64,000 nucleotides of DNA, from the IMG/VR virus record IMGVR_UViG_3300010965_000258, positions 5,062-69,061 of that record; one strand, written 5' to 3'. The number at the start of each line of letters is the position of its first letter. Positions within the stretch are counted from its first letter, which is position 1. The translations under genes were made by a program, and so were the position numbers. The notes beneath the pieces are model-generated. The model made no database searches. It saw only the letters and a list, made by a program, of their open reading frames with translations, and was not told the origin of the DNA. Source of the stretch: a virus. Its lineage: Duplodnaviria > Caudoviricetes. Below, one piece after another: positions 61,377-64,000 of this stretch.

Positions 61377-61452
61377 TGTGATCCGAATCACAAAGATTTA
61401 TTTCGACACGCCCGAGAATTGGGGTCAATTTGTCAGACCCCCCTGTTATGCT
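61377..61452 (+). promoter_or_regulatory. early promoter module 1: CRP box, GACAC box, TGTCAG-N10-TATGCT
   Basis: TGTGA-N6-TCACA 61377-92; CGACACGCC 61404-12; TGTCAG 61431-36; -10 at 61447-52. Confidence 0.8.
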
Positions 61453-61501
61453 TAAAGTATAAAGAAAGTTAAGAAAGGTTCTTAACAAGAAAGGTCAGAA
61501 A

Positions 61502-61669
61502 ATGACAAATAGAATTTGGGAAAGTCGTAACGACTATCAGAATGACGCTCAGCGTCTAGGCTATGTATCTTGCTCAGCAGGGTGCGGTAGAGTAACCGCT
61601 TGGACACTCTGCGTAATGTGTGGCGGTAACTACGCTACACACAACACTCTTGGAAAGGAGAATAACTAA
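61502..61669 (+). CDS. 55-aa Cys-rich micro-protein
   Basis: MTNRIWESRNDYQNDAQRLGYVSCSAGCGRVTAWTLCVMCGGNYATHNTLGKENN; GAAAGG RBS. Confidence 0.7.
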   Translation: MTNRIWESRNDYQNDAQRLGYVSCSAGCGRVTAWTLCVMCGGNYATHNTLGKENN

Positions 61670-61782
61670 TGAATGATTACTATGATGAAATCTATCTAGA
61701 CATCTATCTAGAGTTTGGCGCTGATAGCGTTTCAGACCCCGTCTATGCTGAGCAATTAGCAAAAGATAAGGGTGTGAGGTAA
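61669..61782 (+). CDS. 37-aa acidic micro-protein
   Basis: MNDYYDEIYLDIYLEFGADS...; TAATG overlap and AAGGAG RBS. Confidence 0.65.
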   Translation: MNDYYDEIYLDIYLEFGADSVSDPVYAEQLAKDKGVR

Positions 61783-61848
61783 CTCACACTCTACTAGCAC
61801 CGCCCTACGGCGTGTCGGCTTGATAATGTCAGCCCACTAGGCTACAAT
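61773..61848 (+). promoter_or_regulatory. early promoter module 2
   Basis: TGTGA-N6-TCACA 61773-88; GGCGTGTCG 61809-17; TGTCAG 61827-32; TACAAT 61843-48 (also TTGATA-N17-TACAAT). Confidence 0.8.
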
Positions 61849-61882
61849 TCCTACTATAACAACTAACGAAAGAAGGTCAGAA

Positions 61883-62011
61883 ATGAACCTAGAAGAATAC
61901 AAGGCGCAAGTAGAAGCGCAACGCAAGGCGAGCCTATTAAAGGCAATCGCAACAATGTCAGAGGCTAATGATAAGATGTCCTCACTATTCAATACGAAAG
62001 AGGCTAACTAA
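61883..62011 (+). CDS. 42-aa helical micro-protein
   Basis: MNLEEYKAQVEAQRKASLLKAIATMSEANDKMSSLFNTKEAN; GAAGG RBS. Confidence 0.7.
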   Translation: MNLEEYKAQVEAQRKASLLKAIATMSEANDKMSSLFNTKEAN

Positions 62012-62193
62012 TGTCATACGCTTACTCATACGATACTAATTCAATCTCTAAATGGGATACCATTCAAGAAGATGTCGCAGACCAATACACTTACCTAGAT
62101 GAGGTAGATGAACAAGAAGAACCGCTAGATGAATTCAATGATGAAGATGTCGAGCAACTAGAAAAACTATACGCACTAACATGGGAGAACTAA
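62011..62193 (+). CDS. 60-aa highly acidic micro-protein
   Basis: In the ORF track; TAATG overlap; D/E-rich. Confidence 0.75.
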   Translation: MSYAYSYDTNSISKWDTIQEDVADQYTYLDEVDEQEEPLDEFNDEDVEQLEKLYALTWEN

Positions 62194-62195
62194 TA

Positions 62196-62345
62196 ATGAC
62201 TATCACTTACTCGCTATGGGACGGCGCACAATTCTTAGGTTTCTTCACCGCTACTAGCGCAGATGAAATGCTAAAGGTAGTAACAGACCTACAAAAGGTT
62301 TCTAAAAATGTAGTAGCACACATGCGAAAGGTAGAACAGAACTAA
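62196..62345 (+). CDS. 49-aa micro-protein
   Basis: MTITYSLWDGAQFLGFFTATSADEMLKVV...; GGGAG RBS. Confidence 0.65.
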   Translation: MTITYSLWDGAQFLGFFTATSADEMLKVVTDLQKVSKNVVAHMRKVEQN

Positions 62346-62485
62346 TGACTATTGAACTAAATGAATACGGCTTAATGATTGACCTAGGGGACTTTCTCTA
62401 TGTATCCCAATCATGGGCGTTTATTATCTTGTCGGTGCTAGGTGCTATAATCTATAAAGTAATCAAGAGAAAGAAGAATAAGTAA
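62345..62485 (+). CDS. 46-aa single-TM micro-protein
   Basis: ...WAFIILSVLGAIIYKVIKRKKNK; TAATG overlap. Confidence 0.65.
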   Translation: MTIELNEYGLMIDLGDFLYVSQSWAFIILSVLGAIIYKVIKRKKNK

Positions 62486-62655
62486 TGAAAGAATGTAAAG
62501 TAATCAACTGTAGTAATACCGATTTAGTTTATAGCGGTATAGATGCACTAATGCTAGGCGGTATAGTAACCGAGACCTATTGCTACTCATGCGCTAATGC
62601 GTATAATCAAATAGATAACGCTATGACACTACTAAGAGATAAGGTTAATGCGTAA
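62485..62655 (+). CDS. 56-aa Cys4 micro-protein
   Basis: MKECKVINC...YCYSCANAY; TAATG overlap. Confidence 0.65.
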   Translation: MKECKVINCSNTDLVYSGIDALMLGGIVTETYCYSCANAYNQIDNAMTLLRDKVNA

Positions 62656-62777
62656 TGAATAGACTACTAACTACCCTAGTGCAATTATCTATCGCTATCC
62701 CCGCCCTAATAATGTGGCGCATGATGTGGCCAATGCTAAAAGAAGATGTGAGAGAACTCACAAAAGATATTCGCTAA
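62655..62777 (+). CDS. 40-aa single-TM micro-protein
   Basis: MNRLLTTLVQLSIAIPALIMWRMMWPMLKEDVRELTKDIR; TAATG overlap. Confidence 0.6.
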   Translation: MNRLLTTLVQLSIAIPALIMWRMMWPMLKEDVRELTKDIR

Positions 62778-62831
62778 CTAACGGCGTGTCGGCTTGACAA
62801 AAGCTGATCTCGCCCCCATCTTTTGTGCGGG

Positions 62832-62893
62832 TTATCCACAGGTTTATGCACAGCTGTGGAAAACGCCTGAAATTTGAGCGTAACTTATCCACA
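62832..62893. promoter_or_regulatory. cluster of four DnaA boxes
   Basis: TTATCCACA 62832-40; TTATGCACA 62844-52; TGTGGAAAA (rc TTTTCCACA) 62855-63; TTATCCACA 62885-93. Confidence 0.75.
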
Positions 62894-62967
62894 TGGTGCA
62901 AATCACAAAAATACTTTTCCGACACGCCCGAAAAACAGGCCAAAATGTCAGACCCCCCTGCTATAAT
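62892..62967 (+). promoter_or_regulatory. early promoter module 3
   Basis: Degenerate CRP box CATGG-N6-TCACA 62892-907; CGACACGCC 62920-28; TGTCAG 62946-51; TATAAT 62962-67. Confidence 0.8.
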
Positions 62968-63023
62968 TCCAGTATAAAGAAAAACAAGCGGTAAAGAAAT
63001 CCGCTAACGAAAGGTGGTCTCAA

Positions 63024-63200
63024 ATGACTACAACAATAACAATGTGTAAAGAACACAATCCAATGAAATCTGCTATCTCAGAAATTGGAGATGAGCAATT
63101 TACTTTCTGCCAAGATTGTGAACAAAACATCTCTCGCTACTATGGAGATACAGACCCAGAGCGTCTACCTATGTGGACAGATTGGTATTTAACTAAATGA
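63024..63200 (+). CDS. 58-aa C/H metal-binding micro-protein
   Basis: MTTTITMCKEH...FCQDCEQ...; GAAAGGTGG RBS. Confidence 0.7.
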   Translation: MTTTITMCKEHNPMKSAISEIGDEQFTFCQDCEQNISRYYGDTDPERLPMWTDWYLTK

Positions 63201-63361
63201 GCACTTTTGTTCCGATTAAATCCGTATGTGGTGCGGTATCTACCACAATTGACATATATGACTATGAGTTAAACTCTCATGGTGTTATTTGTTGCGATAA
63301 TTGCGAAAGCATTTTGTTATGCCGTAAGGCGTGGGATTTCTTATACAAGGGAGTTAAATAA
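63197..63361 (+). CDS. 54-aa Cys-rich micro-protein
   Basis: MSTFVPIKSVCG...ICCDNCESILLC; ATGA overlap. Confidence 0.65.
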   Translation: MSTFVPIKSVCGAVSTTIDIYDYELNSHGVICCDNCESILLCRKAWDFLYKGVK

Positions 63362-63559
63362 ATGGAAAAATCACAATTAGAAAAAGATTTAGAAATTAAA
63401 GAAAGTTTTATAGATTTACTTAATGATGTTTATCCTACTGTAAAAATTGGTTACTCAACTTTTACACCCGCCGAAATTTTGGAATGTTGCGACCCAATCG
63501 CATTTTCAATCGGTCTAATTGAACACGAAGATTATTTAGCAGAAATGGAAAACGAATAA
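63362..63559 (+). CDS. 65-aa acidic hypothetical protein
   Basis: In the ORF track; AGGGAG RBS. Confidence 0.75.
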   Translation: MEKSQLEKDLEIKESFIDLLNDVYPTVKIGYSTFTPAEILECCDPIAFSIGLIEHEDYLAEMENE

Positions 63560-63654
63560 TGGAATTTTACGGATTTGAACACGCAATTGAATTGGATCAT
63601 CTTAGCGATGAGCAGATTTTGCAACTAGAAAAAATCTTTGAAGATTTTGAATAA
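63559..63654 (+). CDS. 31-aa acidic micro-protein
   Basis: MEFYGFEHAIELDHLSDEQILQLEKIFEDFE; TAATG overlap. Confidence 0.6.
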   Translation: MEFYGFEHAIELDHLSDEQILQLEKIFEDFE

Positions 63655-63725
63655 ATAACGGCGTGTCGGCTTGACAAAAGCTGATGCGCCCACAATTGTG
63701 GCGGCGTCGGGCGTGTCGTTAAGAC

Positions 63726-63874
63726 TGTGATGAAAATCACCCTGGATTCTACGGCGTGTCGATTTGACAGACAAAACGGACATTTTTGTGTGACCTTTAT
63801 CACATGGCTTGAGCGTCTCAATATTTGGAATTACTGGCTAGTAATGTGAAAATGTCAGCCCTATCCGCTATAAT
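63726..63874 (+). promoter_or_regulatory. early promoter module 4
   Basis: TGTGA-N6-TCACC 63726-41; GGCGTGTCG 63753-61; TGTGA-N6-TCACA 63789-804; TGTCAG 63853-58; TATAAT 63869-74. Confidence 0.8.
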
Positions 63875-63906
63875 TGCGGTATCAACAAAACGAAAGGCGG
63901 ACTCAA

Positions 63907-64000
63907 ATGTCAGCAAATGTCTATACAATCGAAAACCTACTTGTAGGAAAAACCTATCACTCAAAAACCTTAAAGGGTGAAATTATCTCAGCAGAGAAAC
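63907..64000 (+). CDS. hypothetical protein, 5' part (runs off window end)
   Basis: MSANVYTIENLLVGKTYHSKTLKGEIISAEK; GAAAGG RBS. Confidence 0.7.
   Translation, partial: MSANVYTIENLLVGKTYHSKTLKGEIISAEK

Follow-up and report, generated by a model that had tools for sequence, protein, structure and literature searches.

Putative PafBC-type promoters ahead of the tiny-gene operons of a widespread family of freshwater actinophages

The stretch of viral DNA considered here (the window, 64,000 nucleotides (nt) in length) comprises bases 5062-69061 of the 69,061-bp IMG/VR contig IMGVR_UViG_3300010965_000258 (Duplodnaviria; Caudoviricetes), which CheckV rates as 64% complete and whose end is also the end of the window. 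Its last kilobases carry a plus-strand block of very small genes, the operons of which are preceded by the hexamer TGTCAG, placed exactly 10 nt upstream of a -10 element, as in the RecA-NDp promoters served by the actinobacterial DNA damage activator PafBC. The best explanation of these sites, judged from sequence comparison, is that they are genuine promoters of a hybrid class, combining a -26 box (AAA-TGTCAG-TG/ACC, at -28 to -23), a spacer of exactly 10 nt and a SigA-type -10 element in the absence of a -35 element, and we consider it moderately probable that host RNA polymerase with SigA reads them together with host PafBC by sigma adaptation. To our knowledge, PafBC and sigma adaptation have so far been described solely as a DNA damage circuit of the host. 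Titles and abstracts of the papers listed on RecA-NDp, on PafBC in connection with phages and on sigma adaptation in connection with phages yielded no paper on PafBC-type phage promoters, and an earlier note on this DNA, made from the sequence alone, was likewise aware of none; what would be new is a known class of promoter and activator in a new role, that of serving a phage.

The small-gene block and its promoters

The contig, with a guanine-cytosine (GC) content of about 36%, derives from a large siphovirus, whose portal, prohead protease, capsid gene and tape measure protein of 3488 amino acids (aa) are all encoded on the minus strand; an N4-type virion RNA polymerase was considered for the 3488-aa open reading frame (ORF) and rejected in favour of the tape measure protein. 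At about 61.4 kb of the window a series of tightly packed, very small plus-strand ORFs (31-65 aa) begins. Its operons and motif sites are given below, the distance to the next start codon being counted from the end of the -10 hexamer for the six sites which are plausible promoters.

61431-61452, plus strand: promoter P1, the first box promoter of the block; TGTCAG at 61431-36, extended -10 TG at 61444-45, -10 hexamer TATGCT at 61447-52; 49 nt before the ATG at 61502
61502-61782, plus strand: operon 1, two small ORFs of 55 and 37 aa
61827-61848, plus strand: promoter P2; TGTCAG, -10 hexamer TACAAT, no TG; 34 nt before the ATG at 61883
61883-62777, plus strand: operon 2, about seven small ORFs of 40-60 aa with overlapping stop and start codons
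61956-61977, plus strand: possible internal promoter within the ORF 61883-62011; TGTCAG, extended -10 TG, TAAGAT; 33 nt before the ATG at 62011
62430-62451, plus strand: internal promoter within the ORF 62345-62485; TGTCGGTG-N8-TATAAT (the TGTCGG variant), extended -10 TG; 33 nt before the ATG at 62485
62946-62967, plus strand: promoter P3; TGTCAG, extended -10 TG, TATAAT; 56 nt before the ATG at 63024
63024-63654, plus strand: operon 3, four small ORFs of 31-65 aa
63853-63874, plus strand: promoter P4; TGTCAG, TATAAT, no TG; 32 nt before the ATG at 63907
63907-64000, plus strand: first ORF of operon 4, continuing past the end of the contig
63908-63929, plus strand: motif match in codons 1-8 (M-S-A-N-V-Y-T-I) of this last ORF, which starts with the ATG at 63907; no extended -10

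The earlier note had named five of these sites (61431 with TATGCT, 61827 with TACAAT, 62946 and 63853 with TATAAT, and 63908 with TACAAT), all of which are present exactly as it gave them, and had overlooked two, the site at 61956 and the TGTCGG variant at 62430. It was also correct in stating that three of the four operon promoters lack a -35 element; the sites at 61431 and 62946 carry an extended -10 (TGn) and the exception, P2, is taken up below. In total, TGTCAG-N10-TAnnnT occurs six times in the window, or seven times if TGTCRG is allowed, compared to 0.97 +/- 1.07 occurrences in dinucleotide shuffles, none of which reached the observed count. All seven sites lie on the plus strand within 61431-63929 (the last 2.6 kb), and the 69-kb contig contains none elsewhere.

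The likeness to PafBC promoters, which the earlier note had pointed out, agrees with the published consensus in box, spacing and missing -35 element: chromatin immunoprecipitation sequencing and cryo-electron microscopy gave tGTCgg(N10)tA(N3)T, in which the -26 element occupies positions -23 to -28 and a -35 is missing (PMC8635444). Arg46 and Arg50 of PafB read the two guanines of the GTC triplet (PMC8635444), and PafBC is activated by single-stranded DNA (ssDNA) (PMC11804915).

As a side observation, a moderately conserved TATAA-like element follows about 6 nt after the -10 hexamer (approximately 61453-61475, 61849-61870 and 62968-62985), around the expected start site, as in TATAAT-TCCTAC-TATAAC or TATGCT-TAAAG-TATAAAG; a conserved A-rich leader with GAAAGG at its end comes next.

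The motif in related lake phages

Relatives were collected by means of the 17-mer GGCGTGTCGGCTTGACA, which comes after two of the operons in the window and retrieved at least 119 IMG/VR contigs, many of them 100-116 kb long; motif statistics refer to 119 loci around GGCGTGTCGGCTTGACA matches (1.16 Mb), the control being the pattern TGTCRG-N10-TAnnnT read backwards. The 962 sites found for the pattern compare with 18 for the control (about 50-fold). Nearly all of them (952/962) lie on the majority strand of their own locus, and a Shine-Dalgarno (SD) sequence, a start codon and an ORF follow 15-65 nt downstream at 792 of 937 sites (85%), compared to 159 of 962 random positions. The spacing is equally strict: N=10 accounts for the 962 sites, N=5 yields 218 as a by-product, and none of the remaining spacings between 6 and 21 reaches 100. 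When starting from the -10 element instead, 549 of 3187 occurrences of TAYAAT have TGTCRG exactly 16 nt upstream, an enrichment of about 300-fold, and TGTCRG is the top hexamer found de novo at this position.

A logo built from 697 distinct sites reads AAA-TGTCAG-T(G/C)(C/G)c...TG-c-TAtAAT. The box itself (TGTCAG/TGTCGG) is invariant in it owing to the way the sites were selected, with A preferred over G at box position 5 (79%) and T (66%) and G (50%) following at positions 7 and 8. No -35 signal is visible: at logo positions -6 to -3 the information content does not exceed 0.12 bits and rises only through the AAA tract abutting the box, TTGACW at 17-18 bp from the -10 element forms a minor class, and TTGACA-like hexamers at 17-bp spacing are rare among the 119 loci.

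The organisation of the whole genome can be seen in two complete relatives, G002 (115 kb) and G004 (116 kb), which contain 14 and 17 sites, respectively, on one strand and in one block of about 12 kb with roughly 45 small genes, besides one stray site elsewhere per genome. About 14-17 short operons, made up of tiny genes and confined to a single-strand block of about 12 kb, are headed by box promoters. In the 20 kb of intergenic DNA outside this block the two genomes have no box sites; canonical -35/-10 promoters and plain TGCTATAAT promoters are found there. The counterpart of the operon 4 block extends about 9 kb further in G002 and includes GP88 and DUF932 genes.

Orthologous genes were picked by protein similarity, independently of the motif. 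Where such an orthologue heads an operon the motif lies upstream, and where the motif is missing the upstream sequence is coding-like. The strict motif is present in 12 of 14 orthologous upstream regions of P2, and the motif in 8 of 10 of P3, the other two of the latter being directly preceded by coding-like sequence. In the upstream regions orthologous to P1 the boxes are kept and the spacer varies, and the P4 module recurs in relatives, also with a variable spacer; a free spacer between two fixed boxes is the pattern left by selection acting on a two-part promoter. The internal site at 61956 is kept in nine relatives and its 33 nt fall within the 30-34 nt spacing of orthologous upstream regions, though coding constraint is perhaps the cause of its conservation. 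More doubtful as a promoter is the match at 63908, present in the first codons of the last ORF as the earlier note had reported, since its conservation in relatives is that of coding sequence; in G002 about 180 nt separate it from the next ORF start, and the match is probably coincidental or coding-constrained.

The matches could in principle be a by-product of duplicated intergenic modules, or of chance, and have no promoter function. P1 and P3 do share a longer duplicated module (CGACACGCCCGA...TGTCAGACCCCCCTG), and the site at 63908, perhaps also that at 61956, is coding-constrained. However, the 697 distinct sites have diverse spacers and flanks, the excess over the backwards control is accompanied by strong coupling to strand and ORF, and the boxes stay fixed while the spacers of orthologues vary. 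We regard this explanation as very improbable, chance or mere duplication being excluded by the comparative statistics.

Phage lineage and host phylum

WhiB, scoring above the cut-off of Pfam and with four Cys residues and the G[VI]WGG motif, is encoded in each of the five relatives of 92-100% completeness; none was found in the 64% complete contig of the window. WhiB serves as a marker for actinophages in the field (PMC10202952, PMC6802176). The best matches of the portal, with about 55% identity, are Streptomyces phages of the Stanwilliamsviridae, and DUF932 homologues occur mostly in phages of Mycobacterium, Streptomyces, Arthrobacter, Microbacterium and Gordonia; GP88, too, has homologues in actinophages. 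G002 encodes nine transfer RNAs (tRNAs), mostly for A/U-ending codons (Leu-UAA, Thr-UGU, Lys-UUU, Arg-UCU, Ile-UAU), which suggests a host GC content above that of the phage (35-38%). By these sequence features the phages are actinophages, with Actinomycetota as the predicted host phylum, and the best explanation is a lytic siphovirus of about 110 kb which infects freshwater actinobacteria and is part of a widespread family.

Two attempts to narrow down the host were given up. DUF932 as a bridge between phage and host is present in only one of 301 genomes. WhiB led to just two contigs of metagenome-assembled genomes (MAGs), in a Bacteroidia bin (G006) and an Aquiluna bin (G007), neither of which is host evidence. 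Other contigs of G006 carry arrays of the promoter motif, so the Bacteroidia-labelled bin holds mis-binned phage DNA of the same family, and the G007 contig (G007:C2; 57 kb, 40% GC) carries WhiB and a RecA-like gene within an Aquiluna-labelled bin of 52% GC; the low-GC phage contigs in both bins look like binning contaminants.

Streptomyces Samistivirus and Karimacvirus records, among them ON970591.1 (1258-2274), contain a DUF932 homologue of about 50% identity, located at 1.3-2.3 kb and matched at two places in each record. Such an arrangement would fit the view that in this phage lineage the small-gene block is an early region lying in a terminal repeat.

PafBC and its box in candidate hosts

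Two samples were examined, one phylum-wide (121 Actinomycetota genomes) and one class-wide (301 genomes, 40 of them with rhodopsin), the tallies of which take in eight unpublished genomes (G127, G008, G055, G095, G025, G075; G334, G336); no single claim or sequence given here depends on these eight. WYL genes, mostly paired, are present in 99/121 Actinomycetota genomes. Among the genomes with rhodopsin, the 20 small Actinomycetia ones, which measure 1.3-1.7 Mb and mostly have 44-51% GC in the loci sampled, contain WYL genes without exception, and 18 of the 20 have a tandem pafBC-like pair encoding proteins of 300-340 aa about 1 kb apart.

The box is in use in these genomes as well. TGTCRGTG-N8-TAnnnT occurs 90 times in the 20 rhodopsin-bearing genomes, compared to 12 times for the backwards control. 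A nearly identical site lies upstream of recA in eight of them (the downstream gene was confirmed as recA in one), a RadA-like gene has the box upstream and is leaderless, and a site upstream of carD recurs in eight genomes, a CarD-like ORF being seen in seven and the Pfam run covering one. Another 16 small genomes were examined for the recA-upstream box, which is present in 6/9 WYL-positive and 0/7 WYL-negative ones. Twelve small actinobacterial genomes taken arbitrarily, with no selection for rhodopsin, showed no enrichment when the strict motif was counted genome-wide.

In one lake MAG, labelled Aquiluna, a PafB-like protein combines a WYL with a WCX domain and is accompanied by a PafC partner carrying HTH_PafC. 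This PafB-like protein, for which 6sj9 and 7p5x are matches in the PDB, has DRLFERDK aligned to SRMFERDK of M. smegmatis, both DNA-reading arginines being kept. In PafB of the low-GC genome G027 the position of Arg46 aligns ambiguously, and this protein was not used as support. Streamlined planktonic actinobacteria, which by their sequences keep PafBC and use the same box, are plausible hosts.

It was further observed that strict sites cluster in one stretch of about 50 kb in G431, where eight of the nine lie within about 46 kb (G431:C1:443341-489204), and in equivalent stretches of G369, G412, G450, G468 and G579. There they drive mostly leaderless small genes without known function, a CAAX-protease-like gene and a TPR protein.

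Other regulatory elements and neighbouring genes

Two further types of box accompany the promoters in the window.

61377-61392: CRP/GlxR-type palindrome TGTGA-N6-TCACA, 54 bp upstream of the P1 box
61773-61788: the same palindrome, 54 bp before P2
62747-62762: the same palindrome, a further copy in the window
63789-63804: the same palindrome, 64 bp before P4
61404-61412: 9-mer box CGACACGCC / GGCGTGTCG, found in both orientations, with further copies starting at 61809, 62783, 62920, 63660, 63710 and 63753

The CRP-type palindrome occurs in 360 perfect copies at most 220 bp upstream of 841 distinct promoter contexts (43% of the contexts) and is helically phased: relative to the TGTCRG box it favours positions -44, -54 and -64, 10 bp apart. 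Some of these palindromes overlap the stop codon of the preceding ORF, and hairpin formation is possible. GGCGTGTCG / CGACACGCC tends to stand at -17 from the promoter box in the forward and at -26 in the reverse orientation, and some relatives have tandem arrays; this 9-mer box contains a GACAC core as well as a TGTCG similar to the PafBC box. The interval separating operons 2 and 3 contains, at 62832-62893, a cluster of DnaA-box-like 9-mers, with TTATCCACA twice, TTATGCACA and an inverted TGTGGAAAA; perfect TTATCCACA pairs recur at the same place in many relatives, and the cluster might serve as a phage origin or titrate DnaA. Promoter contexts with CRP-type, GGCGTGTCG and interspersed DnaA boxes are composite regulatory regions.

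In relatives, GGCGTGTCGGCTTGACA is followed by the hairpin GCTTGAC-AAA-GTCAAGC and a second hairpin, CCCGC...GCGGG. Elsewhere in the window, nine paralogous ORFs (206-241 aa) stand in tandem at 36101-42179 on the minus strand, downstream of a 493-aa ORF, and a tRNA-Ile(UAU) at 60797-60870, also on the minus strand, adjoins the small-gene block. Comparison of the block region with GenBank phages by blastn gave no match.

How the promoters may be read

If host PafBC reads the phage promoters, the course of events would be as follows. ssDNA appearing in the infected cell during DNA entry, nuclease processing or replication would activate host PafBC; the winged helix of PafB would read the GTC core of the box; PafC would bridge to SigA region 4 and so give the contact otherwise supplied by a -35 element; SigA region 2 would read the -10 element (and the TG), and the whole small-gene block would be switched on together with the appearance of ssDNA. 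The earlier note had proposed that the phage wires its earliest genes into the PafBC regulon of the host, and every sequence-level prediction of this proposal which could be tested has passed: the phylum, the motif, its enrichment, and the presence of pafBC and of the same box in planktonic actinobacteria. PafBC binding, activation and timing at the phage promoters we infer.

The alternative offered by the earlier note, a PafBC-like activator encoded elsewhere by the phage, fared worse. No WYL domain was found in the five relatives that are 92-100% complete, nor in the contig of the window, and the same five relatives have no HTH_PafC over the cut-off, no PafB homologue and no Sigma70_r2 domain, so that a phage PafBC-like activator finds no support. 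An orphan early factor or one delivered with the virion, comparable to MotA/AsiA of T4, might instead read the box, in which case the sites would be delayed-early or middle promoters independent of host PafBC. Dozens of genes in the block are orphans without a family match, a conserved canonical promoter upstream of the block could make such a factor first, and the geometry of an activator box without a -35 element is that of the T4 middle promoters. Besides the lack of WYL, PafB/PafC and sigma-region-2 homologues in the near-complete relatives, it speaks against such a factor that the first promoter of the block is itself of the box type, and that the factor would have to converge on TGTCRG(TG) and on the exact 10-nt spacing of a box which putative hosts use at recA, radA and carD. 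On balance we consider a phage-encoded reader unlikely.

Similarly doubtful, in our opinion, is the explanation that the sites are self-sufficient extended -10 SigA promoters, with TGTCAG acting as the operator of a repressor, as the site of another host regulator or as a fine-tuner. G stands at -14 in 82% of the sites (extended -10) next to a near-consensus TATAAT, TGCTATAAT is enriched without any box in intergenic regions outside the block, and CRP-like and GGCGTGTCG boxes, too, are held at fixed offsets. On the other hand, P2 and P4 have no TG and yet keep the box, the box is asymmetric and stands at one fixed distance from the -10 element, which is unusual for an operator, and it is missing from all promoters outside the block and identical to the activator box of the host.

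Returning to host PafBC as the reader, a number of observations weigh against it. The frequent extended -10 and the box-less TGCTATAAT promoters elsewhere make a basal, PafBC-independent activity plausible, and the phased CRP-like and GGCGTGTCG boxes flanking many promoters indicate that other regulators act here too. P2 has a -35-like hexamer, TTGATA at 61820-25, at 17-bp spacing. The genes downstream of the boxes are orphans of 31-65 aa, to which relatives add GP88 and DUF932 proteins whose function is not known; genes of DNA repair or stress response, as expected of a PafBC regulon, are not among them. Of the 121 Actinomycetota genomes 22 are without WYL, mostly small ones; the 14 of these WYL-negative genomes which were tested have no rhodopsin and are therefore not planktonic acI/Luna types. 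BillNye and Genie2, Streptomyces phages and the nearest relatives in culture, contain 0 and 1 sites in their whole genomes, and no such promoter was found upstream of the DUF932 genes of Streptomyces phage Angela, Rhodococcus phage Trina, Microbacterium phage Bush, Mycobacterium phages KayaCho and Qyrzula and Arthrobacter phage Shade; as the closest cultured relatives are without the motif, no ready laboratory phage carries it. Metatranscriptome contigs with the small genes of relatives come from four runs in three studies, and some span promoters; DNA carry-over is possible, and they are neither start-site nor expression evidence.

The timing calls for similar caution. The small-gene block probably consists of early genes. 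A canonical promoter, TTGACT-N17-TAAAAT, lies at 61089-61117, about 340 bp upstream of P1, pointing into the block across an AT-rich gap without an ORF for about 380 nt, and has an orthologous copy in G004; it may be the true immediate-early start or the source of a non-coding RNA, and given this conserved promoter upstream, the box promoters, taken as the earliest in the earlier note, are not necessarily so. Since PafBC needs ssDNA, very first expression from the box promoters is not guaranteed either.

A more far-reaching possibility, which we put forward as speculation and hold to be rather improbable, starts from the position of about 15 consensus-strength boxes beside DnaA-box clusters. 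The phage DNA might be both trigger and main target of the host ssDNA alarm: ssDNA arising locally by origin unwinding or end-processing would fire the block, and limited PafBC would be drawn off the promoters of host repair genes and defence islands.

Comparison with known systems

With the PafBC promoters described in hosts (RecA-NDp, or recA P1-type; PMC8635444, PMC11804915, PMC6789036) the phage promoters have in common tGTCRg(tg) at -28 to -23, N10 and TAnnnT, as well as the missing -35 element, a -10 element for the housekeeping sigma factor and the actinobacterial setting. They differ in being located on a lytic phage, in their number of 14-17 per genome and in serving tiny orphan genes, not repair genes. 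Their -10 element is a near-consensus TATAAT with the TG of an extended -10, A is preferred at box position 5, and the predicted leader measures 30-55 nt and contains an SD sequence, whereas many host sites in the genomes examined are leaderless (6-7 nt). The planktonic rhodopsin-bearing actinobacteria (G343-G585) share the box and the spacing, in genomes of 44-51% GC with a tandem pafBC-like pair; their sites, unlike those of the phages, are chromosomal, number about 4-9 strict ones per genome and have weaker -10 elements (TACCTT, TAGAAT).

Among ssDNA-sensing WYL activators of LexA-independent damage regulons, DriD of Caulobacter (PMC9186387) and DdaA of Moraxellaceae (PMC12392091) likewise recognise GTCG/CGAC. 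Their sites are palindromic (CGAC-N7-GTCG and CGWCA-N5-TGWCG) and proteobacterial, whereas the box of the lake phages is single, asymmetric and placed at -26. The Stanwilliamsviridae of Streptomyces resemble the lake phages in the portal (55%) and in DUF932 at 1.3-2.3 kb, and are unlike them in the promoter motif. Phage-produced transcription factors have been described as interacting in a somewhat related manner to PafBC (PMC8635444).

Among phage systems, the middle promoters of T4 also stand close. The middle promoters of T4 combine a MotA box at about -30 with a sigma70 -10 element and depend on sigma appropriation by AsiA/MotA. They too are phage hybrids lacking a -35 element, in which an activator box situated between -35 and -10 at fixed spacing and a -10 element for the host sigma factor time a block of genes. 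T4, however, encodes its own adaptor and activator, whereas no such gene was found in the lake phages, for which homology to MotA/AsiA was not searched, and the box is that of the host.

Implications

Widespread lytic phages of abundant lake actinobacteria appear to build almost their whole small-gene programme on the PafBC type of promoter. If PafBC is the reader, these phages would time their genes by the ssDNA sensor of the host, with no factor of their own. PafBC activation would in this case be a normal event in infection, which bears on reports of pafBC in phage resistance, such as a 2025 paper which, as cited in PMC12848934, links pafBC to resistance against mycobacteriophages. The motif also offers a practical signature by which the early regions of actinophages can be recognised in metagenomes.

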